64,000 nt of DNA from a virus (IMGVR_UViG_3300028048_001599), one strand, 5' to 3'. Positions 26,989-49,718 are shown, counted from the first letter of the stretch. Numbers and translations: made by a program. Notes: generated by a model not told the origin, from the sequence alone.

Positions 26989-28020
26989 GTGGTAATAATG
27001 AAAACAGTATTTAAGAAATGTATTGCTATTGCCATGACAATAGCATGTCTGGGAGGGGTAGGCACAATCGCTTTTATTGGTGATACTGCTCCTGTTGGTA
27101 TCACAGCTAACGCTACTCAGGGTGAAAACCCTGTTTTGGGTGATATTCGTAATCCTGGTAAGTTCACAAAAGAACTGAGAACAATCAATGGCAATGGTGT
27201 ATCTAAATTCAAGGCTTACCGTAGTGGTTTAAAGGTGACAAAAATAGTTATTAAGAATACGTCAGGAAAAACTCTCAGTACTAAAGAAGCTTGTGTTTCT
27301 ACTTCAATAAAGAAATGGACAAACTCTGCTAAGAGTAACACCTATGCACAGATTTCACTTAAAAGTAATGGTGTCAATATAGTTCATGTTTACTATAATG
27401 ATGGTAATTCACAGACAATTAGAGTCGAAGCAAACAAATACACCTATTCTTATAAGGACTCAGGTTTTGCAAGTAATTTTGGTCTTGTAAATCATGGTTT
27501 AGCAGCTGTCAAGCAGAAATGGTGGTATGAGTATGGTGGGAAGAAGATAGGTAGTGTAGATTGTGCTTCTCTCATATACACTTACAGAAATGTAGGTGGT
27601 CAGAATAAAATGGACTTTTTGAGTAATACTAAAGCAGAAGGTCTAAAGTGGGGGTACGTTAAGAATGGTATTCCGAGGGTTCATGGTTTAGGTTTACACC
27701 AACCTGGTCATGTTGCAATTTATGCAGGTAATGGTAATACAATTGATGCTAGAAGTTATGATGAGTATTGTGTTAAAAAATATTATAATTTTGCAAGTAA
27801 TTTCAATGAATGGTTTTATATCGTAGGTGTTAAATACCCTGTTACTGGTTGGGTCAAGATTGATGGTAAACCTTATTACTATCAGAATGGTCAGTACCTT
27901 GTAAATTGCACAAAGAAAATCAACGGTGTAACTTATAAGTTTGCATCTAATGGGGTAGCTAATAAGAATCCGGCTGAGAGTGCATATAGTAAAACACAGT
28001 ATAAAGTATATAAAAAGTAA
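26989..28020 (+). CDS. Secreted NlpC/P60 cell-wall peptidase with C-terminal wall-binding-like repeats
   Basis: Signal ending GITANA. YEYGG...VDCASL (Cys) and PGHVAIYAGNG (His). TGWVKIDGKPYYY...INGVTYKF. Confidence 0.8.
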   Translation: MVIMKTVFKKCIAIAMTIACLGGVGTIAFIGDTAPVGITANATQGENPVLGDIRNPGKFTKELRTINGNGVSKFKAYRSGLKVTKIVIKNTSGKTLSTKEACVSTSIKKWTNSAKSNTYAQISLKSNGVNIVHVYYNDGNSQTIRVEANKYTYSYKDSGFASNFGLVNHGLAAVKQKWWYEYGGKKIGSVDCASLIYTYRNVGGQNKMDFLSNTKAEGLKWGYVKNGIPRVHGLGLHQPGHVAIYAGNGNTIDARSYDEYCVKKYYNFASNFNEWFYIVGVKYPVTGWVKIDGKPYYYQNGQYLVNCTKKINGVTYKFASNGVANKNPAESAYSKTQYKVYKK

Positions 28021-31643: not shown

Positions 31644-32933
31644 GTGGAATTAGGATTTCACCGTAAGTATAGACCTAATACATTGGCAGAGTATGTAGGT
31701 AACACTAAAAATGTAAAATCAATATTAAAAGTTCTCAGTGGGGGTAATAGACCGCAGGTATACTTGCTTGATGGTCATGCAGGTTGTGGTAAGACTACAT
31801 TTGCACGTCTTATAGCAAAGGAGTACGTATGTGAAGAACGTAGTGACGAGCATGGTGCTTGTTGTAACTGTTTCACTTGTCGTGCTATGGATGAATTTAT
31901 ACTGACTGGTAATTCTGAGGATTTGATGAATGTCCGGGAAATAGATAATTCAGTGTCAGGTAATAAGTCAGACATTGATGAAATACTTAATGATGCAGAA
32001 ATACCCTCATTTGACGGCGGTTGGAAAGTGTTCATCTTTGATGAATGTCACCTCATATCAAAGGCTGCTCAGGGACGTATGCTTAAGCTCCTTGAAGAAC
32101 CTCCAGAAAATGTATTACTTATTCTATGTACAACTGACCCAGATATGTTGCTTGATACAATTCGTTCTCGTTGTCAGCATCATTATACAGTAGTAAAACC
32201 TAAATTACAAGAATTAGCTGTATTATTGAAGCGTGTGTGTCAGAAAGAAAACGTGGTTGTAGAAGATAAAGCACTAGGGGTAATTGCAACATCAGCAGAT
32301 TTTGTTCCTCGACAGGCTTTAATTCAGCTCGAAACTGTAATAAATGAAAAACACGATGTAACTTATAATAATACAATAGAGGTTCTTAACGTAATTGCAG
32401 ATTCATATTATTTTGATTTTTATAAGTATCTCACACAACCTCAGATAGACACATTTTCGTATATTAACTTCTTATCGGAGTTAAAGGAGAAGCTTGATTT
32501 AAAGCAGTTTATATCAGGTCTTATAACATTCACTAATAGGGGTATCTACGTATATAACGGTGTCAATCAGCAAGGTTTAGATACATCAGAAATAAAACGA
32601 TATCGACAAATATTCTCAAAATTTAAAACAGGTGATATAATTCACATATTAAAGTTATTAAAAACAATTCAAAAAGGTGATATTGAAACAGAGTTATTAC
32701 TACTTGGGTATGAAGGTATATTTAGTAGCAATATTGAAACAATAGAAGCGAATAGGGGTACTTTATCAGATAATGGAAATTCTGATTTAAAGAGTGAACA
32801 AAACGCCGCGGTCGAACATTATGTAGAATCTATAACTTTAACTGAAGAAGAAAAAGAACAAAAGCTTTCTGATGATGACGACATGTCTATTGATGACTTG
32901 GCTACTATGTTTAGTGGTGAAATTGTAATATAA
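31644..32933 (+). CDS. dnaX: DNA polymerase III gamma/tau-like clamp-loader AAA+ ATPase
   Basis: HRKYRP, Walker A GHAGCGKTT, Zn module C...CCNCFTC, Walker B IFDECH, LKLLEEPP, and the TIRSRC (SRC) motif. Confidence 0.9.
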   Translation: MELGFHRKYRPNTLAEYVGNTKNVKSILKVLSGGNRPQVYLLDGHAGCGKTTFARLIAKEYVCEERSDEHGACCNCFTCRAMDEFILTGNSEDLMNVREIDNSVSGNKSDIDEILNDAEIPSFDGGWKVFIFDECHLISKAAQGRMLKLLEEPPENVLLILCTTDPDMLLDTIRSRCQHHYTVVKPKLQELAVLLKRVCQKENVVVEDKALGVIATSADFVPRQALIQLETVINEKHDVTYNNTIEVLNVIADSYYFDFYKYLTQPQIDTFSYINFLSELKEKLDLKQFISGLITFTNRGIYVYNGVNQQGLDTSEIKRYRQIFSKFKTGDIIHILKLLKTIQKGDIETELLLLGYEGIFSSNIETIEANRGTLSDNGNSDLKSEQNAAVEHYVESITLTEEEKEQKLSDDDDMSIDDLATMFSGEIVI

Positions 32934-33148: not shown

Positions 33149-33961
33149 ATGACGAGAATATCAAAGCAAACGTTGATTAAACAGGCATATTTTGTGTTGA
33201 TTATGACCGCTATACTATCAATATTCTGTGTATTTACAGGTACAGATGTGTATGCAGCAAAGGATATCAATAGTATAAATGGGGGTAATAGTACATCACA
33301 GTCCTCTCAGTCAACTAATAAGAATGAAACAAAATCTGCAGCAGAAGGTATAGCTGATGCATGGAAAAATGCATCACCTGATAATCAAGACATGGCAGAA
33401 GCTGCGAAGTTCGCGTCACCTTTTGTTAAGGGTGTAAACTTCTGTATCTGTTGTGTTCTTGCAGTTTTCAGTGTATTACTTGCTGCCGTTACTACACTTG
33501 ATTTATTGTATCTTGCTGTTCCACCAGTCCGAAAATTCTTGTGTGCTGAACAACCTGCTGCCACTGGTGGCATGGGCATGGGAATGGGCGGAATGGGCAT
33601 GCGTGGTGGCATGGGTATGGGTGGTGGTGCTCAACCTTCGCAATCAGGTATAGGACGTTTCGTATCAGATGAAGCTGTTGCTGCACTCTCAGAAGCTACT
33701 GCAAACGCCGGAGGCGGCGGTGGCATGGGTATGGGTGGCATGGGTATGGGTATGGGTATGGGTGGCATGGGAATGGGTGGTGCTGCACAGGCACAACCTA
33801 AAACCAAATCCGTAATATTCACATACCTTAAAAAGAGAGCCTTTGCTTTAATCATGTTCGCACTTTGTGTAGTACTTCTCACCTCGACATTATTTACAGA
33901 TATTGGTTTGTATATTGGTCAGTGGGTTATAGATACCGTTGGTGGTTTCTTCTCATTTTAA
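33149..33961 (+). CDS. Signal peptide + two-TM pilin-like protein 1 (GM-rich loop)
   Basis: Signal ...DVYA. TM1 ending DLLYLAVPPVR, VSDEA, then YLKKRA-TM2. GGMGMG repeats in the loop. Confidence 0.7.
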   Translation: MTRISKQTLIKQAYFVLIMTAILSIFCVFTGTDVYAAKDINSINGGNSTSQSSQSTNKNETKSAAEGIADAWKNASPDNQDMAEAAKFASPFVKGVNFCICCVLAVFSVLLAAVTTLDLLYLAVPPVRKFLCAEQPAATGGMGMGMGGMGMRGGMGMGGGAQPSQSGIGRFVSDEAVAALSEATANAGGGGGMGMGGMGMGMGMGGMGMGGAAQAQPKTKSVIFTYLKKRAFALIMFALCVVLLTSTLFTDIGLYIGQWVIDTVGGFFSF

Positions 33962-33976
33962 GTGAGGTGAGTAGTA

Positions 33977-34249
33977 GTGAGGTTTACAGAAATATTAAAA
34001 GGACGTAACATTGCAAAGAAGGGTGTCGTATCTATGAAAGACATGAAAATGTCTAACAAGATAAAGGCAGAGACTTTAACGCAATTAAACGCCATTTTAG
34101 GTGATAATGATAAGGTAATGTTGGAAATAAGTGAAGACGCTGTGCCATTTTTCTTGGACATCCTTGATGACCCTGCATTTGATATTTATATATTTCAACA
34201 GGTGGATGAGTATCATTACATATTCCAAAACAAAACCTTAATCATATAA
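33977..34249 (+). CDS. Hypothetical protein
   Basis: Small ORF coupled to the HU-like gene. Confidence 0.65.
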   Translation: MRFTEILKGRNIAKKGVVSMKDMKMSNKIKAETLTQLNAILGDNDKVMLEISEDAVPFFLDILDDPAFDIYIFQQVDEYHYIFQNKTLII

Positions 34250-34515
34250 TGAAGGAAGTGGTAATAATGGTTGTAAAAAAGACACAATCAGCAAGAATTA
34301 AGGAAATAGCAAAAGTTTTAGATTTACCTGAGGTTACGGTTAAACGTGTAATAGATGAGTACATTGCAAGTTTGCAGTATTCTATAATTCAAGGCGAGGA
34401 CATAGAAGTCCGAGGGGTATTTCAAGTAAGTGCAGAAGAAATTGGTGGTAGAATAGTACCACGGGGCACTGTTTCTCCTGCACTGAAAGAACGGGCAAAA
34501 AGGGGTTACATCTAA
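34249..34515 (+). CDS. HU/IHF-like DNA-binding protein (divergent)
   Basis: IKEIAKVLDL...VKRVIDEYIASLQYSIIQGEDIEVRGVFQV...SPALKE follows the HU fold pattern. Confidence 0.65.
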   Translation: MKEVVIMVVKKTQSARIKEIAKVLDLPEVTVKRVIDEYIASLQYSIIQGEDIEVRGVFQVSAEEIGGRIVPRGTVSPALKERAKRGYI

Positions 34516-35132
34516 TGTTGTACAAGACCCATAAAGCTGCAGGTCTACTCGGTTGTTTAATTGCATTTGATGTAATGAAAAATAACGGGCAGTTAGCACC
34601 TAATATTAACGAATTTGTACAGTTAGCTATCATTTACCCTGCTTGTTCTTGGGCTTCTACTGCTCCAGACCTTGACCATGCTATATGCAATGTAAAGGAA
34701 CAAACTCCTATTAATATAGCAATAAATAAATTATTACATATAGGTAAATGTACCCACAGGTCGGTACAAACTCATAGTGTTTTATTCACTGGTGGTTTTT
34801 GTTTATTACTGTTTGGTTTACTTCAATTATTAGGGTCACCAAATGTAGGGGTAGACGAAAACAGCATTGGTATAATAAGACTTATGCTGTTAGGTATAAC
34901 TTTCGGTATAGCAAGTCATCTGATAATGGATAGTTTATCTACAGCTGGTATTTGGTTAGTACCTAAATTGAAGTTTCGGTTAGTTCCGAACAGAAAAACT
35001 TTTGCAACGGGTGGTAAATGGGAGGACATTGTTAGATTTTTAGTATGTATTGCTATAGTCTATATGTGTATTCACTTGGTTGTTCGATGGTGTGGTTTTT
35101 CATTAACAATCGGGGGTATCCCAATACTTTAG
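34515..35132 (+). CDS. YdjM/DUF457-like membrane metal-dependent hydrolase
   Basis: MLYKTH, PDLDH, HRSVQTHS and SHLIMD...TAGI motifs. Confidence 0.8.
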   Translation: MLYKTHKAAGLLGCLIAFDVMKNNGQLAPNINEFVQLAIIYPACSWASTAPDLDHAICNVKEQTPINIAINKLLHIGKCTHRSVQTHSVLFTGGFCLLLFGLLQLLGSPNVGVDENSIGIIRLMLLGITFGIASHLIMDSLSTAGIWLVPKLKFRLVPNRKTFATGGKWEDIVRFLVCIAIVYMCIHLVVRWCGFSLTIGGIPIL

Positions 35133-35161
35133 TTAAATAATTATGAAAGGTGGTAAAACTT

Positions 35162-36088
35162 ATGACAGGTTCTATTAAGTCTGATAGACTTGTAACACGT
35201 GTTGTTGCTGTAATTTTATCTGCACTTGTAGCGTTGTCGATGATGTTTGCTTTTGGTGGTACTTCAGCTAATGCTGTTACGGTACTTACAACAAATGGGG
35301 GTAAGAGCCTTAATTCCTTACTAACTGCGGATATCAGCGGTTATAGTTCGCATTTCTCGGAATATAACATAAAAAAATTAGCACAGAAATTTGACTTTAA
35401 GTCAAAGGGTAAGGGTGGTGAGCTTCGTAATGACCAGGTTTTTATAATCCAAAACAATAAGAAGTTCACATTTAAAGGTGAGGTTTTTGAGGACATTGAC
35501 GATAGTTCATTACAGCAAGACTTGATTCGTTGTTTTGCAAAAGAGATGACAAAGAAGTCAGTTTACTCATTTTCTGATTCGGACCGTCAGGCAATTTATA
35601 ATGAAATAAAAGATGGTTGCGGACCTGCTAATGCTGCTATGGTTGCTGCATTATTCAGTGATACTAAGGCTGACATGTTCTCAGCACTTAATATCTTTGC
35701 TCCGTTTAATGGTATCGTAGGTACACTTCTTGGTATTGCTGTACTTGTTATCATTGTTCTTCTTATTGCATCTACTGCTATGGATATTGCTTACATCAAC
35801 TTCCCTGTTGCACGTAACTTTATGTATGGTAAAGATGATAAAGGTGGCGGAGGCGGAGATAGTAAGTCCTCAAAACCTTGGGGTGTTACTTCGGACGCAT
35901 GGTCTGTCGTTAATGAATGTGAGGCAGGCGGAGATAAGGGGTATAAAAATGCAAACATTGCTTACTTCAAGAGAAGGGCACTTACTTACATTGTTGTATC
36001 TATCCTCATTCTCTATCTCCTGAGTGGTCAGATTGCAGGACTTATTGCATGGCTCATGCAGTTGGTTAGTGGCTTTAAGATTAACTAA
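35162..36088 (+). CDS. Signal peptide + two-TM pilin-like protein 2
   Basis: Signal ...TSANA. TM1 ending DIAYINFPVAR, PWGVTSDA, then YFKRRA-TM2. High-expression codon bias in the conserved part. Confidence 0.7.
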   Translation: MTGSIKSDRLVTRVVAVILSALVALSMMFAFGGTSANAVTVLTTNGGKSLNSLLTADISGYSSHFSEYNIKKLAQKFDFKSKGKGGELRNDQVFIIQNNKKFTFKGEVFEDIDDSSLQQDLIRCFAKEMTKKSVYSFSDSDRQAIYNEIKDGCGPANAAMVAALFSDTKADMFSALNIFAPFNGIVGTLLGIAVLVIIVLLIASTAMDIAYINFPVARNFMYGKDDKGGGGGDSKSSKPWGVTSDAWSVVNECEAGGDKGYKNANIAYFKRRALTYIVVSILILYLLSGQIAGLIAWLMQLVSGFKIN

Positions 36089-36103
36089 TGCTGATTTGGC
36101 ACA

Positions 36104-36238
36104 CAGGATGCGAGGAAAACATAAGGTTTTCGTAACCTGTTGAACTTATTGACCTCGTATAACAAAAAGTTGTACGAGGTCTCTTTATTTTATTACTAAT
36201 TAATCTATTTCGATAAATTAATTAGTAATGAAATAAAG
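36104..36238 (+). terminator. Three consecutive stem-loops (terminator / RNA stabiliser)
   Basis: ACAGG..GAAAAC/GTTTTC..CCTGT (36104-36140); GACCTCGTATAAC/GTTGTACGAGGTC (36151-36181); ATTACTAATTAAT/ATTAATTAGTAAT (within 36183-36238). Confidence 0.7.
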
Positions 36239-36267
36239 TTTGTAATTAAATTGAAAAGGGTGGTTTT

Positions 36268-37149
36268 ATGTGTAAACATTTAAAATATTTAGTTTGCATC
36301 GTGGTGATAATGTGTATAACAATGTCGATATCAATGGGGGTATCTGCGACTGAGACAATTTCTGACAGTGATTATACTAAGTTTGTTGAGATGTTGAAGA
36401 AGACTGAATCTGGTTCAGGCGAGGATGATAACTGTAATGCTATTAAACTTCCTGATGGGTCTACATTTGCACTATTCAAGTTTGAAAAATCATCAGGTAA
36501 TTTTCATGACATAACATTTAATGCACAGGAGTTTGAGCTTTTAGGTGATTATGAACAAAAGATTACATTGAAAAACTTTGAGGAGGCTTTAAATGCTTCA
36601 AGTATATCAGACCAAGGCAAACAGTATATCTACAATGAGGTTAGATATAGTTACGATTACGATATAAGATTAATACAAGAAAAGGTAATTGATGACGTTC
36701 AGCCAAATATGTTCTTAAGTTATGAATTGTTTCACCCATTCAGTGGGGTAATAAGTACTATTGTTGGCTGTGTTTGTGTTGTTACATTGATGTCTTTGGT
36801 TGTTACTGTAGTTCTTGATGTAATGTACATGCAATTTCCAGTTTTTCGTGAGAAAACTTTCCAGGCTACACAGCGTGGTGGTGGCGGACGTTTTAGCTTT
36901 ATTAAGAATCGTACTCAGATAGAAAGACCATGGTTTATATCATATGAAGCTGCATATGCAAATAAGGTTAATGTTGAAAGTAACGGTACTAGAAATGCTT
37001 TATTAATTTACCTTAGATATAGAGCATTAACATTTATAGTTGTTGCTTTTTGTGTGGTATATCTTATGAATGGTATGTTTGTTGGTATTGTAAGTAAAAT
37101 ATGGGATTTGTTCTCACCCATGTTTGCGCCGGAAATATGGGGAGCATAA
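36268..37149 (+). CDS. Signal peptide + two-TM pilin-like protein 3
   Basis: Signal ...GVSA. DVMYMQFPVFR, PWFISYEA, then YLRYRA-TM2. Confidence 0.7.
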   Translation: MCKHLKYLVCIVVIMCITMSISMGVSATETISDSDYTKFVEMLKKTESGSGEDDNCNAIKLPDGSTFALFKFEKSSGNFHDITFNAQEFELLGDYEQKITLKNFEEALNASSISDQGKQYIYNEVRYSYDYDIRLIQEKVIDDVQPNMFLSYELFHPFSGVISTIVGCVCVVTLMSLVVTVVLDVMYMQFPVFREKTFQATQRGGGGRFSFIKNRTQIERPWFISYEAAYANKVNVESNGTRNALLIYLRYRALTFIVVAFCVVYLMNGMFVGIVSKIWDLFSPMFAPEIWGA

Positions 37150-37161
37150 GGGGGTACTTGA

Positions 37162-38979
37162 ATGACGAAAAAAATATTATGTTTAAGTACTGTTTTATTA
37201 TTGTTATTTACATACATTACGAGCTTCTCAGTGCTTGGAACGTCAGACCCAGGTTCAATGGCGGACATGAATAATAGAACAGGTGTTTTGAAGTGGACTT
37301 TGTCAATTCAGGAGAGTAATGGTACATATAGAAATTTAGATTCTAATACTTACTATATAGCTTCACCTATAACTCCTACTGGTGATAAGTCTTTCGCAAC
37401 AGGTAGTAATGTTCAGTTAAGCATTAAAAATATAGTTACAAATAACAATAATATAATGGTTAGTGCTACTGTTTTAAAATCCAAAAAATCGAATGATTAC
37501 GTTAGATATGCTGACGGTACAATAGTTAAAATAAAGGAGACTAAGAAAGACAAGCACTACAACTATAGTGGCGAGGATATCAACAAATATAGCCTAATGT
37601 TAGATGGTTCTTCTATTGACGTATATAAAGCTAAGGATAAATATACCAAAACTACAATGACTATTCCGGCAGATGGTTTTCCTGAACGATATACTGTATA
37701 TGTAAATAAGCGGACAGCACAGAATAAGTATAAAAATACGGAAATAAATAGTAGTACAGGTATAAGATATGACTTGGATGCGAAAGTGTTTGACTATTAT
37801 GTAAGTCTACCTAACATGACAAACTCGGCAAGACGTAATATTGGAACTAATGACCCATTTTCTCAGTATGCAAATGCGTTTAAGTTATCTACTGTTGTAT
37901 CTCAATCAAATACAATGATGTATAATTACTTAGCAAGTAGGGCTTGTTTCGATTTAGGAACATGTTTTACACGAGGTCAAGGATTTTATGATATAGGTGT
38001 TAATTATCAGTTTAACTCTTCTTTTTCGACTTATTTAGAAGATTTTTCTTCTTATAAACGTTGTTGGTCAGTTGGGGTACAATCATCGCACTTATCTTCT
38101 TCTGTTTCGGTTAAGTTAAATAATACAAGTTCAGTCGGTGGTACAACAACTGCTAAGAATGTAGAATTACCCTATATTATCAGTGGCACAGGGGTAGCAC
38201 CTTTTGAATATAAGGTTACTTATGTTAAAGAAGCTGATGTAACTGAAAAAGATGGTAAATATACAGTTAAGGAAGACGCTACTATAATTGATGTAGCTCA
38301 TGAATCGAATGTTCCACTCAAAACAGAAGCAGGTCTAATAAAAGACGGGGTATCGATGGAGTTTACTGAAAATGGAACATATTATGTCATAATAGCACTT
38401 AAAGACTCAAAATCAGCTTTTATTAGTAAGTACTTCAAGGTCGATGTTGTAGACGCAAATGATTTATTAAACAATGGAGGTTCTGAAGCATCTGGTGCAA
38501 ATAATGGTACTGAGGAAGAAAGTGTAATACCTGATAGAACTCAAATTGAGGCTAATAGAGAGCTTACTTTTGATGAACAGAAAAGGGTAGACGAAATAAA
38601 TAAAAATAGGCAAAATGCCACGGAAATGGGTTTGTGGTCGTGGGTATACACATTCTCGTTTTTGTGTGGTATTTGTTTATTGATTTATAGTTTATTGTTG
38701 CTTGTATCATTTTATATAGACGTATTCAATTCGTTTACTGACTTTAGTTTAACCAAAACTCTCACATTCGGTAGAATGTACCCTGTGGGTTCTAGGAAAA
38801 ACATGGAAAGTTTGAATTTATCACGTGATAAAGATAGTAAAACATACTATACCACAAATGTTACAATATGGGTTTCGTTCTGTATAGGGGTATTAGCGTC
38901 GGCACTTTTAATGAACGCTCAGACTATAATTATAGCATTTTTAGACTTGGCTAATTGGTTTAATAACATTTTATCATAG
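37162..38979 (+). CDS. Exported beta-rich protein with a C-terminal two-TM anchor (paralog of the 39000 C-terminus)
   Basis: Signal peptide, about 430-aa extracellular region, then RELTFDEQ...EMGLWS...FYIDVFNSFT...LTFGRMY...TIWVSFCIGV. Confidence 0.75.
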   Translation: MTKKILCLSTVLLLLFTYITSFSVLGTSDPGSMADMNNRTGVLKWTLSIQESNGTYRNLDSNTYYIASPITPTGDKSFATGSNVQLSIKNIVTNNNNIMVSATVLKSKKSNDYVRYADGTIVKIKETKKDKHYNYSGEDINKYSLMLDGSSIDVYKAKDKYTKTTMTIPADGFPERYTVYVNKRTAQNKYKNTEINSSTGIRYDLDAKVFDYYVSLPNMTNSARRNIGTNDPFSQYANAFKLSTVVSQSNTMMYNYLASRACFDLGTCFTRGQGFYDIGVNYQFNSSFSTYLEDFSSYKRCWSVGVQSSHLSSSVSVKLNNTSSVGGTTTAKNVELPYIISGTGVAPFEYKVTYVKEADVTEKDGKYTVKEDATIIDVAHESNVPLKTEAGLIKDGVSMEFTENGTYYVIIALKDSKSAFISKYFKVDVVDANDLLNNGGSEASGANNGTEEESVIPDRTQIEANRELTFDEQKRVDEINKNRQNATEMGLWSWVYTFSFLCGICLLIYSLLLLVSFYIDVFNSFTDFSLTKTLTFGRMYPVGSRKNMESLNLSRDKDSKTYYTTNVTIWVSFCIGVLASALLMNAQTIIIAFLDLANWFNNILS

Positions 38980-38999
38980 TTAATAAGAAGGTTGATACA

Positions 39000-40373
39000 A
39001 TGGTGAGAAAGAAAATTAAATATATTTTAAGTTTTATTGTGGTCTTAAGTATTGTACTTTCGTCTTGTTTAACTTTGACTGTATTTGCAGAAAAAGATGA
39101 TAAAATAGATAAACTTATAGGCGATGGTGGTACTGCAACCGGTGTAGGTCTTGCTACATGGATGATGCAATGTTACGTGGATGGTTGGGACTATCAAGAG
39201 GGGCAACAAGGATGGGGTGCAGCCGATTGTAGTGGTACAATAGCATATTATAGAAATGCAGGTATTGGTGCTTGCGGGATAACAGACATGATGGGTTCGG
39301 CAAAGGCAAAAAATTTACCTACTGGTGGTGCCGTTAATGGTAGGTTTCTTAAGACTTCTGATATGCCAAGAGTACATGGTATAATAATGCATCATCCAGG
39401 ACATGTAGGTGTGTTTTTAGGTAGTCAGGTAACATTGACTCAAGACGTTAATGGTAAATATGGTAAAGGTAATAGAAAAGGTGTAACACTTACAGGTAAT
39501 GAACTTGATAATTCGGATTATGGTGTAGGACTTGTACTTAGAAACATGGATAATGCGGAAGGATCATGGACTGATTGGGGTTTTGCTGTCGGTTGTAAGT
39601 ATCCAACTAAAGGGTTTGTTAAATTTAATAATAAAGTATTCTATTACGAACCTACAAACAAGGGGTACAGTGAATATGTAGTAAATAAAACTGTGAAAGT
39701 AGACGGTAAAGATTATAAATTTAACGACAAGGGTGAATGTACAAGTGACACGAGTAGTGTAAAATTTGAGCAAACAACTTTTGGAACACCATCGGCATCG
39801 AGTGGTTCATCTAATAATAGTTCATCAGGTACTTCCGAAAATTCAGGTGAAACATCTGATTCAGAGTCAAGTGGGGGTACTACAGCAGTACAACCAGAGG
39901 AAGAATCTTACGCTGATAAAGAGCAGTTAGCAGCCGAACGTGATTTAACATACGAGGAGCAAGTAAGGCTTGAAGCAATAAATAATGACATTAAGAATAA
40001 GCGAGAAATGGGTATATGGTCAGGAATATACACATTTTCAGGTTTATGCGGAATACTTATATTAATTTACAGTTTAATGTTGTTAGTTGCATTTTACATA
40101 GATTTATTTAATTCTTTTACTGAAAAAAGTTTACTACAGCTACTGACATTTGGTAAAATGTACTCAATAGGTAGTAGTAAAAACAGGGAGTTTCTTGGTG
40201 CTATTGCTGAGGACAAAAAAGGCATTGTATATGCTACGCATGCTACAATATGGGCTTCATTCTGTATAGGGGTAATAGCATCGGCAGTTTTGATGAATAT
40301 GCAAACAATTGTAGTGTTGTTCTTAAACATAGCAGATTGGTTTAGTGACCTATTAAATTTTGATATGAATTGA
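39000..40373 (+). CDS. NlpC/P60 peptidase fused to a C-terminal two-TM anchor
   Basis: ADCSG (Cys), PRVHG...PGHVGVFLG (His), wall-binding-like repeat, then RDLTYEEQ...EMGIWS...FYIDLFNSFT...LTFGKMY. Confidence 0.8.
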   Translation: MVRKKIKYILSFIVVLSIVLSSCLTLTVFAEKDDKIDKLIGDGGTATGVGLATWMMQCYVDGWDYQEGQQGWGAADCSGTIAYYRNAGIGACGITDMMGSAKAKNLPTGGAVNGRFLKTSDMPRVHGIIMHHPGHVGVFLGSQVTLTQDVNGKYGKGNRKGVTLTGNELDNSDYGVGLVLRNMDNAEGSWTDWGFAVGCKYPTKGFVKFNNKVFYYEPTNKGYSEYVVNKTVKVDGKDYKFNDKGECTSDTSSVKFEQTTFGTPSASSGSSNNSSSGTSENSGETSDSESSGGTTAVQPEEESYADKEQLAAERDLTYEEQVRLEAINNDIKNKREMGIWSGIYTFSGLCGILILIYSLMLLVAFYIDLFNSFTEKSLLQLLTFGKMYSIGSSKNREFLGAIAEDKKGIVYATHATIWASFCIGVIASAVLMNMQTIVVLFLNIADWFSDLLNFDMN

Positions 40374-40387
40374 TTGGAGTGGTTTAC

Positions 40388-43300
40388 GTGAGGAAGTTAC
40401 GAAAAACAATAAAAATAGGGGTATCGCTACTTTTATCTGTAGCGATACTTTTGTGTTCAGGTATCGTTGTATATGCGGATGAACCTACAGAAACAGATAG
40501 TGGGGGTACAGCTACGAGGGGAAACTATTCCACAATGGCAGGTAACATGCTTAAGAATTTTGCAGACGGTGGTGAAGGTAGTTTAACTATTGATAAAATA
40601 TCTGCAACAGAATTTAGAGCTTGGGGTGTATTGGTTTCTAACTATGTAATACCATTTTATACTAACCCAACTGATATAACTAAAGACTTAGATTTAAAAG
40701 ACTCATCAGGGGAGAAAAAATTTAATGTATGGAAACATTTATGTAAAATATGGCAAAAGTCAGGTAAAGATGAGGCACCTGATTCAAGTTTGTTAGCACA
40801 GTTAAGGCAGAAATATCAAGCTTGTTTTGCAACCGATAAAATGCAGAAAATATACTTAGATAGTTCTAATGAAGTTGCTAAAGTAGGCGACCTTATAACT
40901 AATGATAATATATTAAGTAACACAGATATGCTTTATTGGAAAGATGGTAGTTCTAAAAAATACATATTCAATATGGGTACTTATAATGATAAAGCCGTAT
41001 GCGCACTTGTTCGTTCAGTAAATTGTAAAACAGCTTTAGATCAAGACATGTTAGGTAAAGATTTATTTATATCTTGTTTTGGCGACATATGTGCCTCAAA
41101 AGGGGGTAATGATGTAACTGTAATAATTCCAGCTTGCTTAAACCCATATTCTTTTGGTAAAGATGGAACTAAATTTATGATGAACAATATGTTTGTGTTG
41201 GGTAATTTTTTATCACGAGATAATATAACTACAGATATAAAGTCAAATGACAATGGTGGAAATCTGTTTGACTCAGATGGTAAGGTAACCGATCATGCAA
41301 CATGTACTGGTAATGAAACGACTACCTATGGTTCTTATTTTTACGGTAGAAAGATTGGTGCTAGTAGTTGGTTAAGTATATTTTTACACATTTCTAGTGA
41401 TTCTATGGTACCTTATTTGCAGAGGGCGAGAGACGGAATTAAAGTCGATAACAGTGATGGTGACGTATTTGTAGCAGGTTTATCACGTTATCATCCGAAG
41501 GATGGTTGTAGGGATACAGACTTAGCACAGGGGGTAGATTCATATTTAGCGTTTACACAGCCATTATGGTCTATCGGTACATTGAAATATATCGCAGATG
41601 AAACTAGTTATAAAAACGTTATAGGAATAACTGGACGTTCAAAATTAGTTGATAGTGATAAGATATTTTATAATAACAATGATAAAGGCATATTTACGAG
41701 ATCTTCAGAATTGGCCTCTAATATTAGTTCTTTAAACTCAACCTTATTTACTTATAATTACACAAAAGAAGGAAATCTTTTTGGTTGGTCATCTACTGAC
41801 TCAATAAATCATGAGAAACTTAATGATAAATATGGTATAGTAGATAAAACATATTTTCAAGCACAAATAGGTGGGTTTGGTGTCGCTAAAGATACAAGTG
41901 GAAAAATTAAAGTTTCATATAAGGATAATGGTGCAGATAAAGAGAAACAAATTCATGGGTCAATTAACGACTATACATCGTTATTTAATGAAGTAGATAA
42001 AAATAGTAATAATGAAGCTCGTTATGTAACTATGTTTTTAGCAGGGCAGTACGTAGATGATGCAGTGGATAGTACGGGTCAGGGTTTTACAGATAACCGT
42101 ATTAAATCTGTGGATAGACTGACTTGTTTTCAAATTCCAGTAGACAAAACAATATCAAAGTTAGGTATTTTTAACACTATTGCAAATTCTGACACTGCAA
42201 ATTTTAAAACAATTAAAGCTATAAATTATACTGATGTCGGTGAAGGATCACAATTGAAAAAATACCATAGTAAAGCTATAAACTACAAATCGCAAGGTAA
42301 TAACGCAGCAGCTAATAGTGATTATAATAATGCTGTTGCAATGCCTGAGTCTTTATATGCACTAAATTGTCAAGACCTTAAAAGTTCTAATGCAGTCAAA
42401 CTTTCTGATGGTGGTTTGTATTTAGCATCTGACCGTAATTTATTTGCTAATATATACTGGGCATATATTGAGGATATAGTAGGTATCACAGCAGAAGACA
42501 TAGAAAAGGCTATTGCGAATGGGTCTGAGGTCAAAGCACAAAAGATATCAACTGAGTTACCACCTGTTCCTGATTCTTCTGACTTTGCTTCTGATTTGGA
42601 AGCTCAGTTATCGAGTTCAGAAGTTGCGGATGAAGTGGCTGAAGCTGCTAACAGTGAACTTGAGAAAAAGCAGGCAAGTATCATAGATTGGACATACAAG
42701 ATTCTTTCAGGTGGTACATCTGGTGCTCTTGCAGACGCTGGTCAATATGTTATTAGTTGGTTAAAATCTCTTGTTGATGGTTTATTCTTAGGTATGCATA
42801 ATGCTATGGTAGGTATTGACGTAACGAATGGTTTGACTGGTACTGTGAAAGGTATAGGTAACACAAATCAGTCAGGTGTATATTCAACGGCAGTGGGGTA
42901 TATAACAACACCAACATTTGATAGTCTACCTATAACAAGTTGGGTTACAAATAATTTTACGATAATGTACGTCGCCTTAATGTTACTTGTAGTAGTAATA
43001 TTGATATTTATGGTTGTATCGAAAGCACGACGAATACCGCAAGCAGTAGGGGTATTTATAGTGATGGCATTTGTATTAGTACTTCCAGCAAATTTACTAA
43101 ACAATAGTATAAATATATCAAACATGGCTGCTGAAAAGATATATAGTGAAAAGTTTATGTACTGGGCAGTAATGCAACATGCGGAATATTTAGTTAATCA
43201 AGGTAAAGCCGATAATGTAGACCAACAGATTTTAGCAGATAACATGTCAAGACAGGCTGAGGCTACTAAAACAGGTGGTGTAACTGTAAAATGGTTATGT

Positions 43301-46300
43301 CCTAAAAAGTGGGGTATCACTGAGCAAATAAAATCGGTAACAAAAAATACAAAGGGTTTAGGTTTGTTCTTGTACTTTGCTGGTGATATACTTGATGGTG
43401 AAGATTATAGTTATAATATATCTTCTGACGGAACATATTTATATCGTTCCTACACAGCTATATTTGTTGAAGCTAAGGGTTTGCAAAAATCACTCGATGA
43501 AACAAATAAAAACTATTCCGACAAATTAAGTGCTATATCTCCAAAGATAAGAGCCGAATGGAACGGTTCAAACAAAGCTAAATATGGTGCTGTTACATTA
43601 ACAAAGTCTGACGGTAAAAGTGGTTCGTACACTTTAGCTAATAAGACAACCGAAAATGGTTCTGTAAAAACTGTAACACCAGATACAAATTTGTTTAGAT
43701 TTAAAACAATTCGTGGTGATACATTCTTTAGAGCAGCACTTGGTCAAAATAGTATTGATAAAGATGGTAAGTCTAAGGTTTATCCTGATGGTTATTATGA
43801 CTCATATTACGGTTCTAATGGTATAATGAAGGTAAAAAATAACACGTTTAAATCAAACAATAGGATTTATTCGATGTATTTGGATAGTAATTTGACATCG
43901 GCGGTATTTAACTTTAACGTCAACAATGTATCTTGGAACCCGATTACAAAAGCTAAGAAGTGCGGTCTTTGGATATCTGACGATAATAGAGTCGCAGTTG
44001 ACGAGGAAGTAGATGCTAATATCTACAAAGAAGGGGTAAGAACATTTCTTGATTATTCTGAGAGTCCTTATTATTATTTTTATAATGTATTCTCTGATAC
44101 AACTATTAAAACAGATAATAACGATACAATAAGTGGCGCTGATGACTTTGTAACTTTGTTATTAAGTGACGAGTTTTTCACTGTAACTGACCAAAAGAGT
44201 AAGGCATATGGTGAAGTTAAAGATTACCTTGATTTGGAAGGTCTATTTACATACATAATACCGTTCTTAGACTACGCTAATCAGGATGCTGCAAAATATT
44301 TTCAAAAGTGGGGGTACGATGTAAAACGTACGGACATTGAAGAAACCTCAGAAACATCAAAGAAAGAAACATCAAAGCAAGAATCTTCTAAAAAAGAGAC
44401 ATCAAAACCTGAATCGTCTAAACCTGAGTCATCTACTGAGGAAACTTCCGAGGAAGTTGAGGAAGAAACACCAAAGACACAGGCAGAGCTTGATTACGAG
44501 GAGCATAAATCTCAAAATCAAGCTGTTTGGAACTTGTACTCACCTTGGGTAAATGCACTTATGGACGCTAATAATAAGGTTCAAACAGCTAATTCAGGTT
44601 ATGGTCAGGTAACAATTCTTGAAGCTTGTAACCCCGCTGATTATACCTATAATAATCGCCCAATGGCGTACTCACCAGCAGAAAAGCAATTGAGGGGTTA
44701 TGCAGATATCGATCTTACTACGGTTGAATACAAGTTACAAAAAGTATTAAAAGAAACACGTGAAGATTTGATCGAGTTGTTGAATTATAAAGACTTAACA
44801 GGTGAGGGGGTACCTGAAGGTAACGATATCCTTATAAGTGCTGCAGCAATGATTGCAACATTCCACTTCAATCAAGAATTTAGTGACACAGGTTTCATGT
44901 CAACTAATATTCAAATGTACCCTGTATCATTTGAGTTGAAGAATATGAACTATGACGCATATTTAAGACTTATAATGGGCAATTCAATGGGGGTAAATCA
45001 AGTTAAACTTATGAAGAATAAGAGTACAGCTAATCAAACAATCTATGAAACATTTGTTCATAACACATCAGCTGTTTCTGCTATAATTCTTATTCTTGTA
45101 GACGCAATGGGTGTATTTGTAATACCAATTATGAAAATATTATTAATAGCTATTATATTCTTCTTAGCATTGGCACTATCCATATCGTGTATTATAAATG
45201 CTCCTGAAAAATTGTTACCAACGATAATAAACACATTTGTATTACCTGTTTTAGGTATGATATCCATATTTACAATGCATGCAATAGTGGTATCGTGGTT
45301 CATAGGCGACGGTGCATCAGGGGTAATAGACTCGCATAGTATAGCAATTACAACTGGTGACCCAACAATAACATTGCTACTGTTACTAATTGTTGATGTT
45401 GTAACATCAATTTTAATGTGGAAACTTTTGAAATATGCTGCTGTATCAACTGTTAAGTATATAAAGGCAACATTTAGTGGTATTAAGGACATGGCTACAA
45501 ATCTGTTTGGTAATATTGTTGGTTCTATTGGAGCAGTAGCAGGTGTAGGAACACTAGCTGTAGGTACTGCTGGACTTGTAGGAAAAGCGGCAACTGCAAC
45601 TGCAAAAGTAGGGGCAGGGGTAGTCAAAGCAGGTGTTGGGCATCACAGAGCTAAAGTACAAAAAGAGATTGCTAAGAACACTCGTAATAATGGAAACGGA
45701 CAAGGTAACAGAACTGAAAATGGTCAAGGTAATGGAAATGGACAAGGTCAAGGTCAGGCTCAGGGTCAAGGACAAGGTCAGGCTCAGGCTCAAGGACAGG
45801 GTTCAGGTCAAAACAATAATTCTTCTGGTAACAATTCTACTGTGTCATCTGATAATAATTCTAATGGTGACAACAATTCCAATGGTAATTCTACTAATGC
45901 TAAAATGTCATCTGAAAATAAGCAACAGATGGAACTTAAGAAAACTAATGAAACACTTAAGGAAATTAGTGGAAAACTTGACAGAGTTTCATTTAGTCGA
46001 AGTGTAGGTGGTTCACCTGCTAATCCTATGACTGGTTCACCATTTAAGGCTGATTTGGAAAACGCTCAAAAGACTGAAAGTGGTATTTATGTATCAAATA
46101 ACTCAGGTAAAAATGGAACTACAAACACTGAGTCTAAGAAAACCAAAATAAATAGTGCATCACCTGCTAGAGCCGCACAAAATTACGGTAATTCAAGTAC
46201 CGCATCAAATTTTGATTTTGGTTTTGGTAATAAAGAGCCATCTGGAAACTCTGCTAAACCTGTGAAATTGTTTGGAGCGGATGGAAAACCGTTGTTATAA
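40388..46300 (+). CDS. Very large polytopic membrane protein, VirB6/TcpH/ConG-like
   Basis: GTG after RBS GGAGTGG. Signal peptide, large extracellular regions, two TM near residues 865-910, a TM cluster near 1570-1690, then a Gly/Ala-rich helix and G/N/Q low-complexity tail. Lies immediately upstream of the wall hydrolase. Confidence 0.6.
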   Translation: MRKLRKTIKIGVSLLLSVAILLCSGIVVYADEPTETDSGGTATRGNYSTMAGNMLKNFADGGEGSLTIDKISATEFRAWGVLVSNYVIPFYTNPTDITKDLDLKDSSGEKKFNVWKHLCKIWQKSGKDEAPDSSLLAQLRQKYQACFATDKMQKIYLDSSNEVAKVGDLITNDNILSNTDMLYWKDGSSKKYIFNMGTYNDKAVCALVRSVNCKTALDQDMLGKDLFISCFGDICASKGGNDVTVIIPACLNPYSFGKDGTKFMMNNMFVLGNFLSRDNITTDIKSNDNGGNLFDSDGKVTDHATCTGNETTTYGSYFYGRKIGASSWLSIFLHISSDSMVPYLQRARDGIKVDNSDGDVFVAGLSRYHPKDGCRDTDLAQGVDSYLAFTQPLWSIGTLKYIADETSYKNVIGITGRSKLVDSDKIFYNNNDKGIFTRSSELASNISSLNSTLFTYNYTKEGNLFGWSSTDSINHEKLNDKYGIVDKTYFQAQIGGFGVAKDTSGKIKVSYKDNGADKEKQIHGSINDYTSLFNEVDKNSNNEARYVTMFLAGQYVDDAVDSTGQGFTDNRIKSVDRLTCFQIPVDKTISKLGIFNTIANSDTANFKTIKAINYTDVGEGSQLKKYHSKAINYKSQGNNAAANSDYNNAVAMPESLYALNCQDLKSSNAVKLSDGGLYLASDRNLFANIYWAYIEDIVGITAEDIEKAIANGSEVKAQKISTELPPVPDSSDFASDLEAQLSSSEVADEVAEAANSELEKKQASIIDWTYKILSGGTSGALADAGQYVISWLKSLVDGLFLGMHNAMVGIDVTNGLTGTVKGIGNTNQSGVYSTAVGYITTPTFDSLPITSWVTNNFTIMYVALMLLVVVILIFMVVSKARRIPQAVGVFIVMAFVLVLPANLLNNSINISNMAAEKIYSEKFMYWAVMQHAEYLVNQGKADNVDQQILADNMSRQAEATKTGGVTVKWLCPKKWGITEQIKSVTKNTKGLGLFLYFAGDILDGEDYSYNISSDGTYLYRSYTAIFVEAKGLQKSLDETNKNYSDKLSAISPKIRAEWNGSNKAKYGAVTLTKSDGKSGSYTLANKTTENGSVKTVTPDTNLFRFKTIRGDTFFRAALGQNSIDKDGKSKVYPDGYYDSYYGSNGIMKVKNNTFKSNNRIYSMYLDSNLTSAVFNFNVNNVSWNPITKAKKCGLWISDDNRVAVDEEVDANIYKEGVRTFLDYSESPYYYFYNVFSDTTIKTDNNDTISGADDFVTLLLSDEFFTVTDQKSKAYGEVKDYLDLEGLFTYIIPFLDYANQDAAKYFQKWGYDVKRTDIEETSETSKKETSKQESSKKETSKPESSKPESSTEETSEEVEEETPKTQAELDYEEHKSQNQAVWNLYSPWVNALMDANNKVQTANSGYGQVTILEACNPADYTYNNRPMAYSPAEKQLRGYADIDLTTVEYKLQKVLKETREDLIELLNYKDLTGEGVPEGNDILISAAAMIATFHFNQEFSDTGFMSTNIQMYPVSFELKNMNYDAYLRLIMGNSMGVNQVKLMKNKSTANQTIYETFVHNTSAVSAIILILVDAMGVFVIPIMKILLIAIIFFLALALSISCIINAPEKLLPTIINTFVLPVLGMISIFTMHAIVVSWFIGDGASGVIDSHSIAITTGDPTITLLLLLIVDVVTSILMWKLLKYAAVSTVKYIKATFSGIKDMATNLFGNIVGSIGAVAGVGTLAVGTAGLVGKAATATAKVGAGVVKAGVGHHRAKVQKEIAKNTRNNGNGQGNRTENGQGNGNGQGQGQAQGQGQGQAQAQGQGSGQNNNSSGNNSTVSSDNNSNGDNNSNGNSTNAKMSSENKQQMELKKTNETLKEISGKLDRVSFSRSVGGSPANPMTGSPFKADLENAQKTESGIYVSNNSGKNGTTNTESKKTKINSASPARAAQNYGNSSTASNFDFGFGNKEPSGNSAKPVKLFGADGKPLL

Positions 46301-49300: not shown

Positions 49301-49718
49301 CTCTACTGATGATTCGTTGCCTAAGCCTTTGAATTACTCAGCATCAAAGTTAAAAATATGGGGTAGACCTACTGCTACTAATAAAAATGTCCCTGAAGAT
49401 GTAAGAAAATTCTGTGCAGCACTTGGTAAAACCAGTGTATGCGACACTTATAAAAGTCCGGCTACAGGAGAAACAATAAAACAGGATGGTAGTTTCTCAT
49501 TCTACCCAGAGTTAACTAGCGATGCATTAGACATCCCTGGTAGAACACACGCAGATGGGTTCGTTGTAGATGGTGATGGTTATATAGTATTAGCTGGTTC
49601 ACCTAATCAAAAGAAGAATCATACAGTCGTACCTACACCTTTTGCAGGTCGTAAAGGTAAGGTATACGATGTATGTGGTACATCGGCATTTGATATTTAT
49701 ATGGCTCGAGGTTCTTAA
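46314..49718 (+). CDS. Multi-domain peptidoglycan hydrolase (VirB1/CwlT/TcpG analogue): TM + unknown domain + CHAP + L,D-transpeptidase-like + 3D-like
   Basis: CHAP: EWCAMFV...PKAGDIIVF...DHVGMV...TIEGNT. YkuD-like: KTPFGAY...GSAFFLHV...PTAGCVA. C-terminus: DGDGYIVLA...TPF...GKVYDVCG...FDIY. Confidence 0.8.
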   Translation: MILSTILRVTRNAARAAAKSGKKLVNGVASTRRTVSGETTDGNVKSNDTLMNKFKTKNKKLRKLKSMKKVGKSSKKVASNLFILAVGFVEDILSLLFGSALIFMLILCTLIPVLAVVIMGTIDGVSSISTSGDNFTTTGGSGGVQITDPSTYDWWGNKEQNMRLLTDDYDKELYQLIMMNMDLAQYSHSDTSVDNLWNGTFGVGILYAEMGGGISSKIVNFHEGTEAEKNQLKYEKWNYVFAPFCLGYSSDYLGDGPVGLSWGLPKKDVSYEYSHYEIKNVNKKWLDDSATGTSSYHGTYNDNQKYAIWTTPGSLKWSYYNTIAYSYTDWRTEAFDRWGVEKSDENLYNIATCDYYAKHHGHAAGNKDEKAVLEYMLALYNYVDKDLNNVYIVDSSGKLAKDEGHAIYREVLANDFGKTSSNYIKVIHDGKEHTFKGSGDDLLGKALLDWAKSENPSGYKKLKEAIDYGSDGAPGFNGNTLFSSNVSNCIGIYLIGSTLVKYMVEKLGLTFDVATTDNSNFPGGTQTAKNVVAVMTDLYNKHGAKSSDKWTMGYNQLLNSNGSKATNFNTEWCAMFVNTVLNTAKINGSTKTVAQGLHDVTNDLFPSGACAEMGYGNSRKYDSLFTSTSGLSNRAEITKSGYVTAHYGGQELSGKNATKDYKGEISKESLYKPKAGDIIVFSFGNHEFYDHVGMVREDSESFYTVNTIEGNTNDDNENYGAGGWLNTRGYSNSTSICMYLEINYLALEEKFGTPSIKTGGSGGKLDINKYVETQAKTLGNDSTLSGCSQVLDVVTSGTSAKLTVYNKSNGKWTKGGLVDASGFIGKDGVGSKDSNANESCSKTPFGAYYLGVNFGGFGIAQSGLKIDWKNVSSKQSYWGSSNNSKHLNKFYQASSAETSADENLTSICNSGAYKYSILIEYNYGNNAKKGGGSAFFLHVGSNPTAGCVATSESNMKKIVDWIDKSKKTRILIHPEDSKVIAVATVSTGGSSSKGNSSTDDSLPKPLNYSASKLKIWGRPTATNKNVPEDVRKFCAALGKTSVCDTYKSPATGETIKQDGSFSFYPELTSDALDIPGRTHADGFVVDGDGYIVLAGSPNQKKNHTVVPTPFAGRKGKVYDVCGTSAFDIYMARGS

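Follow-up and report, generated by a model that had tools for sequence, protein, structure and literature searches.

The DNA analysed here is a stretch of 64,000 nucleotides (the window) of the virus sequence IMGVR_UViG_3300028048_001599, taken from a metagenomic contig of 324,292 bp. Between positions 33149 and 40373 it holds eight genes, all in the same (+) orientation, five of which encode proteins with an N-terminal leader and a C-terminal pair of hydrophobic helices. These five proteins belong to two families: family A, which comprises the open reading frames (ORFs) beginning at 33149 (A1), 35162 (A2) and 36268 (A3), and family B, which comprises those beginning at 37162 (B1) and 39000 (B2). 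From sequence comparison, we infer that family A is an ancient, fixed set of three paralogues at the core of the conjugation module of Firmicutes that is typified by the 'Tip' system of plasmid pXO16. On balance, we lean towards the reading that the family A proteins stay in the membrane and serve as structural subunits of the Tip-type transfer machine, and that the family B proteins are lineage-specific hydrolases or other ectodomains tethered beside it. The analysis shows the division into two families, the predicted topologies, synteny, copy number, a hydrolase signature and a conserved hairpin, whereas the functional roles proposed below are inferred.

In the following sections, seven pXO16-like elements are compared, namely the window, pXO16 itself (L001) and five metagenomic loci of falling similarity (L002-L006). 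Further loci come from plasmid pCW3 (L010), Paenibacillus (L011 and L013) and Geobacillus thermocatenulatus (L012). Each of the five window proteins has 11-16 cluster members at 90 % identity or more.

Two families with a common topology

The preliminary description of this region claimed five ORFs encoding a leader and two helices, and translation combined with a hydropathy scan recovers all of them: each of the five proteins contains one N-terminal and two C-terminal hydrophobic segments. A leader cleavage site of the AxA type is found in four of the five (VYA/A, ANA/V, VSA/T and VFA/E, where the slash marks the cleavage point) and is less clear in B1; the alanine at position -1 is conserved in the alignments. 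For A2, the start codon is taken to be the ATG used in homologues, and a GTG at 35150 is also open. Basic residues flank both C-terminal helices on the loop side, e.g. R128/K129 and K228-K229-R230 in A1. With the leader cleaved and the basic residues at the loop side, the predicted topology is N-terminus outside, loop inside and C-terminus outside. The loop between the helices measures about 95 amino acids (aa) in A1, about 50-70 aa in A2 and A3 and about 50 aa in family B, i.e. 45-100 aa overall, and the mature proteins range from about 230 to 575 aa. The loop of A1 (residues ~131-225) is a low-complexity tract of about 95 residues that is rich in Gly and Met and contains GMGMGG repeats; this composition is kept from pXO16 to L002-L006, with a conserved FVSDEA helix in the middle of the loop.

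The same description treated the five genes as a single family with two closely related anchors, and in this respect it is not confirmed. When hidden Markov models (HMMs) of the two anchors are run on the window, the A model detects three ORFs and the B model two, and at E ≤ 1 neither model hits the other family, so the arrangement is 3 + 2. Between the families, BLASTP similarity is not significant and hhalign gives probabilities of 1.9 % and 0.7 %. Within family A, A2 and A3 share 27 % identity over 212 aa (BLASTP, 2e-30). A1 is weakly similar to both in BLASTP (1e-4 and 4e-5), and the profile of A1-type proteins matches the A2/A3 profile with an hhalign probability of 98.3 % (E = 2e-14) in an alignment that spans the first transmembrane helix (TM1), the loop and the second (TM2). 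Within family B, B1 and B2 are 53 % identical across the C-terminal 165 aa (BLASTP, 1e-57). The motifs quoted earlier are all found where they were claimed: D(L/I/V)xY..(V/F)P..R, F/G-V/I-S/T-x-E/D-A and Y-L/F-K/R-x-R-A in A1, A2 and A3, and FYIDxFNSFT...LTFGxMY in B1 and B2. By these sequence comparisons, A and B are two families that are alike in topology and between which common descent is undetectable.

A variable domain had also been proposed for all five proteins. The proposal stands for the B1 slot, in which the domain differs between relatives. It fails for A2 and A3, the ectodomain of which is conserved across the family, and for B2, which is kept at full length in the relatives (42 % and 31 % identity).

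Synteny with the transfer region of pXO16

The claim that these genes belong to a conjugation-type module is supported by synteny with the region of pXO16 that holds the tip genes. pXO16, which was reached through the ATPase query only, encodes counterparts of the DUF87/AAA_10 ATPase (38 % identity over 91 % of the length, 6e-126; 1.7e-145 in the protein-by-protein comparison), of the FtsK-like ATPase (37 % identity, 5.1e-91) and of the giant polytopic membrane protein that follows the A and B genes (30 % identity to a 1834-aa protein, 1.3e-57). In addition, there are collinear homologues of A1 (6.3e-18), two proteins of the A2/A3 type (2.5e-16 to 2.4e-10) and several proteins of unknown function.

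In all seven elements, the gene order is AAA+ / A1 / ~90-aa protein / HU-like / YdjM / A2 / A3 / (B1 B2) / giant protein, and each locus contains exactly three family A ORFs, the third of which is cut by the contig end in L005. The pXO16 Tip region thus has the same order as the window, three family A orthologues and a YdjM gene, at low identities (22-41 %); unlike the window, it lacks family B, the gene for its giant protein comes immediately after A3, and the hydrolase after the giant protein is a different one. Orthologues of A3 are found in L003 (2.7e-84) and L002, and A3 also has a partner in pXO16. In the pXO16 record NZ_CP083136.1, the three family A genes occupy positions 187701-188465, 190232-191110 and 191230-192039.

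Conjugative transfer of pXO16, a plasmid of Bacillus thuringiensis sv. israelensis, is experimentally established (PMC9673590). As summarised there after Makart et al. 2018, the tip locus covers 25 kb and 16 coding sequences (CDSs), including two ATPases and the hydrolase TipB, with no relaxase or oriT identified, and transfer is very fast and mobilises plasmids that have no oriT. Because no relaxase, VirB6, VirB8 or pilin is recognised there, the pXO16 machine is largely a black box (PMC9673590). The mating apparatus of the window is not an undescribed one, as had been proposed; it is of the known pXO16 'Tip' type (PMC9673590), though its proteins are uncharacterised and its mechanism is opaque. 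For the parts that must span the envelope and are still missing, family A supplies concrete candidates that can be tested in a culturable model.

Size, phylogeny and distribution of family A

A word-indexed search with A2 as a query finds 36 homologous clusters. When the family A profile is searched against 1.84 billion representatives, 1077 clusters (counted at 50 % identity) are obtained at E ≤ 1e-3, 735 at E ≤ 1e-10 and 236 at E ≤ 1e-30, and nearly all of the proteins in these clusters are 250-340 aa long. The family has no match in Pfam, NCBIfam or PHROG. When the region, A2, B2 and the N-terminal domain of B1 are used as queries in megablast and tblastn searches, neither plasmids nor phages give any match.

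In the maximum-likelihood tree, the A1-type proteins of the seven elements form one clade with support of 100/99. A2 and A3 form separate starred clades inside the lineage of the window, and the deeper A2/A3 splits are unsettled.

A scan of one genome per species detects family A, in reduced layouts, in Paenibacillus humicus, P. aceti and G. thermocatenulatus. In Paenibacillus (5578-12238 in L011 and L013), a single A gene lies after a gene for a GLUG-motif protein and just upstream of a gene for a 1725-aa homologue of the giant protein. In G. thermocatenulatus (5129-6672 in L012), an A1-type and an A2-type gene are adjacent and are followed by cargo genes of conjugative elements, namely amidoligase, GGACT and CAP-domain genes; pCW3 likewise bears amidoligase and CAP-domain genes. 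The contigs of these species are 0.23-5.6 Mb long, and their sizes suggest integrated elements in at least two cases. The range of family A thus takes in B. thuringiensis, giant plasmids of the gut/rumen type and the chromosomes of Paenibacillus and Geobacillus. Since the named hosts are all Firmicutes, this distribution supports, without proving, a monoderm host for the window. In the literature accessible to us, a hairpin family of about 1000 clusters that forms a fixed part of the pXO16-type module as three paralogues is new.

Structure of the family A ectodomain

Structures were predicted for A2 using AlphaFold2. The full-length model (16 sequences) has a mean pLDDT of 70.7 and contains a well-predicted ectodomain and two long helices (residues 180-213 and 264-303), with a third, short one in the loop between them. 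When the ectodomain is modelled alone (residues 38-170, 71 sequences), pLDDT rises to 92.5 with a pTM of 0.85, and the model consists of four beta-strands packed on helices. Foldseek finds no match in PDB at E ≤ 1e-3 for either the full A2 model or the ectodomain model, and VIA-align of the ectodomain against 48,161 representative chains gives nothing at Z ≥ 5. No VirB8/NTF2-like or VirB5-like structure is among the matches listed for the ectodomain. The predicted A2 ectodomain is therefore a confident model that has no recognisable structural relative, and it is new to the accessible literature. A complex prediction for mature A2 and A3 has a score of 0.01, which counts neither for nor against binding.

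Comparison with VirB2 pilins

The preliminary description took the five proteins to be pilins of the VirB2/TrbC type that carry cargo. In this explanation, VirB2-like major and minor pilins would polymerise into an extracellular or wall-spanning filament and display their N-terminal domains, of unknown fold, adhesin-like or hydrolytic, on the outside. In type IV secretion systems (T4SSs) of Gram-positive bacteria, VirB2 and VirB5 are absent apart from Patescibacteria (PMC12102498, PMC12857230), so a genuine pilin here would be important; the evidence falls short of one.

In their gross design, the proteins do resemble pre-pilins: like VirB2, TrbC and TraA (PF04956), they combine a cleavable leader with two hydrophobic helices that leave both termini outside, a trait that is not specific to pilins. 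Several paralogues are present, divergent arrays of VirB2-like pilins exist in monoderm Patescibacteria (PMC12857230, PMC12102498), and no canonical VirB2 that could fill the role is found by the Pfam scan or by a six-frame search of the whole pXO16 record, where PF04956 is absent at E ≤ 1.

Profile comparisons give no link to VirB2. A search with VirB2 of pTiC58 yielded 787 homologues (all of the 120 listed carry PF04956), from which a 20-sequence profile was built; against this profile, hhalign gives a probability of 0.3 % for the family A hairpin and 0.1 % for the family B hairpin. None of the five proteins matches PF04956 or PF18895 at E ≤ 0.1, so that an identity as VirB2/TrbC pilins is not borne out. 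Profiles of family A, of the A hairpin and of the B hairpin find chance-level rows only among the PDB sequences, and no pilin chain is listed at E ≤ 10. VIA-align of the whole A2 model retrieves generic helical hairpins only (Z ≤ 7.4), and a generic hairpin cannot discriminate the pilin fold from others.

The dimensions also differ. Unlike VirB2, which has about 70-100 aa in its mature form and a few residues between the helices, the A and B proteins have 230-575 aa and inter-helix loops of 45-100 aa, and a distance of 16-23 kb separates their genes from the VirB4-like gene downstream. The lumen of the F pilus is about 28 Å wide and lined by the short loop of the pilin, and at a rise of a few Å per subunit it offers room for about a dozen residues per subunit. 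Since the loops described here are far longer and are predicted to be cytoplasmic, the known architecture of VirB2/TraA pili cannot hold them. Furthermore, family A has a copy number fixed at three in fixed positions, whereas VirB2-like pilin arrays are variable, with 2-11 copies in Patescibacteria and Bartonella (PMC12102498, PMC12857230). No relationship between A and B is detected, and ectodomain hypervariability of the kind known from antigenic pilin arrays is not seen among variants that are at least 90 % identical. We consider it quite unlikely that these proteins are VirB2-like pilins, and the 'cargo-bearing pilin' reading, being unsupported by current evidence, is corrected here.

Comparison with other Gram-positive transfer systems

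Transfer of pXO16 has been likened to that of pCW3 (PMC6199540). Like the Tcp system of pCW3, the module of the window includes an FtsK-type ATPase (TcpA in pCW3), a YdjM protein (TcpI), one or more wall hydrolases (TcpG), a large polytopic protein (TcpH) and small membrane proteins, which are essential in pCW3 (TcpD and TcpE). The A and B hairpins show no relation to TcpD and TcpE (hhalign, 0.05-0.6 %) and do not match PF12648. The giant protein has no Pfam match and no BLAST similarity to TcpH, so the 'VirB6-like' label of the preliminary description is tentative; its similarity to the Paenibacillus homologues is high (~4e-113 and 6e-113). TcpI (36482-36976 in L010) belongs to the YdjM family (PF04307, 3.5e-27), and YdjM thus recurs in FtsK-dependent conjugation loci of Gram-positive bacteria. 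Because YdjM is common to two such loci, the A1-YdjM-A2 block would be tied to transfer rather than to housekeeping.

Family A can also be compared with the VirB8-type proteins OrfG, TcpC, TraM and PrgL (PMC11753425), since its members too are membrane-anchored, are predicted to expose a domain at the surface and are encoded in a conjugation locus. The VirB8-type proteins have an N-terminal anchor and NTF2-like domains, whereas in family A a leader is combined with an alpha/beta ectodomain and with a hairpin at the C-terminus. None of the five proteins matches PF12642 (VirB8/TcpC) in Pfam, and Pfam scans recognise no VirB8/TcpC-type protein in the module of the window. In other Gram-positive T4SSs, membrane-anchored VirB8-like subunits multimerise and build a channel that spans the wall (PMC11753425).

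A conserved hairpin after A2

Directly 3' of A2, the window contains a terminator-like hairpin whose spacer fold has a z of -7.3. A strong hairpin is present in the A2-A3 spacer of six of the seven elements: the window, pXO16 (21157-21218), L002 (10876-10931), L003 (10963-11021), L005 (11191-11249) and L006 (9916-9971). The sequences are unrelated and the position is kept, and most of these hairpins are followed by U-runs. In L004, the spacer is 13 nt long and has no hairpin. In an energy scan, comparable hairpins occur only about once per 3-5 kb in these AT-rich elements. A second, AT-rich palindrome lies at 36191-36230 of the window, just upstream of A3.

The position of the hairpin suggests either that transcripts ending after A2 are more abundant than those that reach A3, or that an operon ends here; in molecular terms, the hairpin may serve as an attenuator or stabilise the 3' end, or it may mark an operon boundary. 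Since a conserved terminator-like hairpin closes its gene, A2 is probably the most heavily required protein. One subunit in excess is also what the pilin explanation expects, as major pilins are. A polymer unlike VirB2 pili can be imagined as well, in which an abundant A2 together with minor A1 and A3 would leave the plane of the membrane and polymerise on the giant protein as a wall-spanning stalk or short filament, while family B anchors would assemble with it and bring hydrolases to its tip or base. We give this arrangement a small chance. If true, it would give Gram-positive conjugation its first dedicated polymeric conduit, one that occurs in more than 1000 protein clusters.

The same hairpin bears on an explanation that takes family A out of the transfer channel altogether. 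The family might belong to a module for DNA processing or establishment, formed with the AAA+, HU-like and YdjM genes, e.g. as a membrane tether for transferred or replicating DNA, or it might act in exclusion or immunity. In all elements, A2 and A3 come after the genes for the HU-like protein and YdjM, and A1 lies directly after the AAA+ gene. Between the AAA+ gene and A1 there are a promoter-like site and another terminator-like hairpin, and together with the hairpin after A2 these positions suggest that A1 to A2 may be one transcription unit apart from A3 and the giant protein. Nevertheless, YdjM itself occurs in the tcp conjugation locus of pCW3 as TcpI, the A gene of Paenibacillus adjoins that of the giant protein and neither an AAA+ nor a YdjM gene is recognised in the flank examined, and the exported, conserved ectodomain points to a role in the envelope. 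As for exclusion, the proteins concerned are normally encoded by single genes and not by three conserved paralogues. A function of family A in DNA processing, establishment or exclusion is in our judgement unlikely, though it carries some weight.

Family B: a common anchor with exchangeable domains

The family B anchor occurs in the window, L002 and L003, i.e. in one sub-lineage, and is always encoded by a pair of neighbouring genes that separates A3 from the giant-protein gene. With the anchor HMM, family B is absent from pXO16, L004 and L006. A word-indexed search with the anchor finds two close relatives only; since the copies in L002 and L003 were found by direct comparison, this search under-reports.

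The description of B2 as an NlpC/P60-type hydrolase is supported by sequence evidence of three kinds. First, the DCSG motif (D76-C77-S78-G79) and the residues H135 and G137 of the HVG motif are invariant in a four-sequence alignment. Second, in a comparison with PF00877 (NlpC/P60), for which the cut-off is 23, the B2 orthologues reach 23.2 bits (6.8e-5) and 20.6 bits (4.4e-4); B2 of the window itself has no PF00877 match at E ≤ 0.1. Third, the top four rows of the PDB profile search are all NlpC/P60 endopeptidases (LytE, Spr, MepS), at weak E-values of 0.03-0.055. In addition, residues 191-252 of B2 match the C-terminal part of the endolysin family phrog_6745 (6.6e-6), which is the sole match of the five proteins in the Pfam, NCBIfam and PHROG scans.

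The N-terminal domain of B1, about 440 aa long, has no match in Pfam, PDB or phages. In the relatives, the B1 slot carries other domains on the same, unchanged anchor: a phage-tail lysozyme in L002 (Phage_lysozyme2, PF18013, 6.4e-31) and a different domain of 590 aa in L003. The idea of cargo on a two-helix anchor therefore holds for family B, which has variable cargo on a conserved anchor and in which the demonstrated cargoes are wall hydrolases; its other half, that the anchors are pilins, is not supported by any link to VirB2. Among members that are at least 90 % identical, 24 of 116 sites are variable in the B1 anchor (residues 490-605) as compared with 16 of 425 in the ectodomain, and there is no such excess in B2. 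Gene conversion acting between the neighbouring anchors may be the cause.

B2 and the lysozyme in the B1 slot of L002 are predicted wall hydrolases that belong to a transfer module and are tethered to the membrane, as are PrgK, TraG of pIP501, CwlT, TcpG and TipB. These known examples are tethered by an N-terminal anchor or a lipoprotein signal, whereas the tether of family B is a C-terminal two-helix module that is common to two adjacent genes with exchangeable ectodomains. A modular anchor of this kind, recombined with different wall-degrading or unrecognised ectodomains, is new to the accessible literature.

The endolysin-type domains of the B proteins (the PHROG endolysin and the Phage_lysozyme2 of L002) could also be taken as traces of a phage-derived cassette for lysis or penetration, in which the hairpins would be holin-like or pore-forming and would release or activate the neighbouring wall hydrolases. 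The phage-like nature of pXO16 has been discussed (PMC6199540), and two-helix proteins beside lysins recall holin-endolysin pairs. Against such a cassette, neither family A nor the N-terminal domain of B1 has a match in PHROG or in phage genomes, elements without family B still conserve family A, and a length of 250-340 aa together with a folded domain that is exported does not resemble a holin. The hydrolases, moreover, need no holin because they have leaders of their own and a covalent anchor. We regard a phage lysis cassette as very improbable.

A 23-kb part of the window contains three separate wall-hydrolase genes (26989-28020, B2 and 46314-49718), an unusually heavy investment in wall remodelling for a single transfer module.

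A tentative model of the apparatus

According to the reading that we favour, with family A as structural subunits of the transfer machine and family B as tethered accessories, A1, A2 and A3 would be three non-redundant paralogues that probably form a joint assembly containing an excess of A2. In a transfer channel or scaffold, the hairpins of these proteins would be next to the giant polytopic protein, and the conserved helix of the cytoplasmic loop (KPWGVTxDA or FVSDEA) would be available for docking cytoplasmic ATPases. The ectodomains of A2 and A3 would project into the cell wall. Family A might in this way fill the roles that VirB3-type and VirB8-type proteins have in other Gram-positive T4SSs. 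Family B would be a later addition, made in the sub-lineage of the window and attached by its own hairpin anchor, which would hold the peptidoglycan hydrolase of B2 and the exchangeable exported domain of B1 beside the machine and so open the wall locally or engage the partner cell.

Several points weigh against this model. The A genes are interleaved with AAA+, HU-like and YdjM genes, so that the module could serve DNA processing or another function. No structural relative of the A2 ectodomain is recognised, so a known fold offers no guide to its function. The ATPase is weakly VirB4-like: its AAA_10 match (6.5e-4) is below the cut-off, and it has no BLAST similarity to TcpF.

Neighbouring genes

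The positions of the genes and of the hairpin are given in Table 1. A phmmer search of PDB with the DUF87/AAA_10 ATPase returns nothing.

Table 1. Positions of the genes and other features discussed in the text, counted from the first nucleotide of the window
Feature	Position	Strand	Description
NlpC/P60 protein with choline-binding-type repeat	26989-28020		Wall hydrolase
Clamp-loader-like AAA+ protein	31644-32933		DNA_pol3_delta2, 2e-32; pXO16 counterpart with 41 % identity, 3.9e-109
A1	33149-33961	+	270 aa; leader, exported N-terminal region of ~55 aa, TM1, cytoplasmic Gly/Met-rich loop of ~95 aa, TM2
Small protein of ~90 aa	33977-34249	+	Gene of like size at the same place in L002-L006 and pXO16; no family match
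HU/IHF-like small DNA-binding protein	34249-34515	+	Pfam Bac_DNA_binding, 7e-4 (below cut-off); NCBIfam IHF/HU weak
YdjM-family membrane protein	34515-35132	+	Annotated 'metal-dependent hydrolase'; PF04307, 2.2e-14; pXO16 orthologue (L001 19513-20220), 5.6e-27
A2	35162-36088	+	308 aa; leader, conserved alpha/beta ectodomain of ~130 aa, TM1, Gly-rich cytoplasmic loop with KPWGVTxDA helix, TM2
Terminator-like hairpin	36151-36181	+	13-bp stem followed by a T-run
A3	36268-37149	+	293 aa; architecture as in A2
B1	37162-38979	+	605 aa; leader, exported domain of ~440 aa (fold unrecognised), family B anchor in the last ~165 aa
B2	39000-40373	+	457 aa; leader, predicted NlpC/P60-type hydrolase, endolysin C-terminal-like segment, Ser/Gly-rich linker, family B anchor
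Giant polytopic membrane protein	40370-46300	+	1976 aa; follows the A/B genes in every relative; member of neither family
CHAP + YkuD (L,D-transpeptidase-like) protein	46314-49718		1134 aa; wall hydrolase
DUF87/AAA_10 ATPase	56288-58393		Match in pXO16 (see text)

In L004 and L005, the gene at the position of the HU/IHF-like gene matches Bac_DNA_binding. The clamp-loader-like AAA+ gene always opens the block that contains A1, in all of the relatives.

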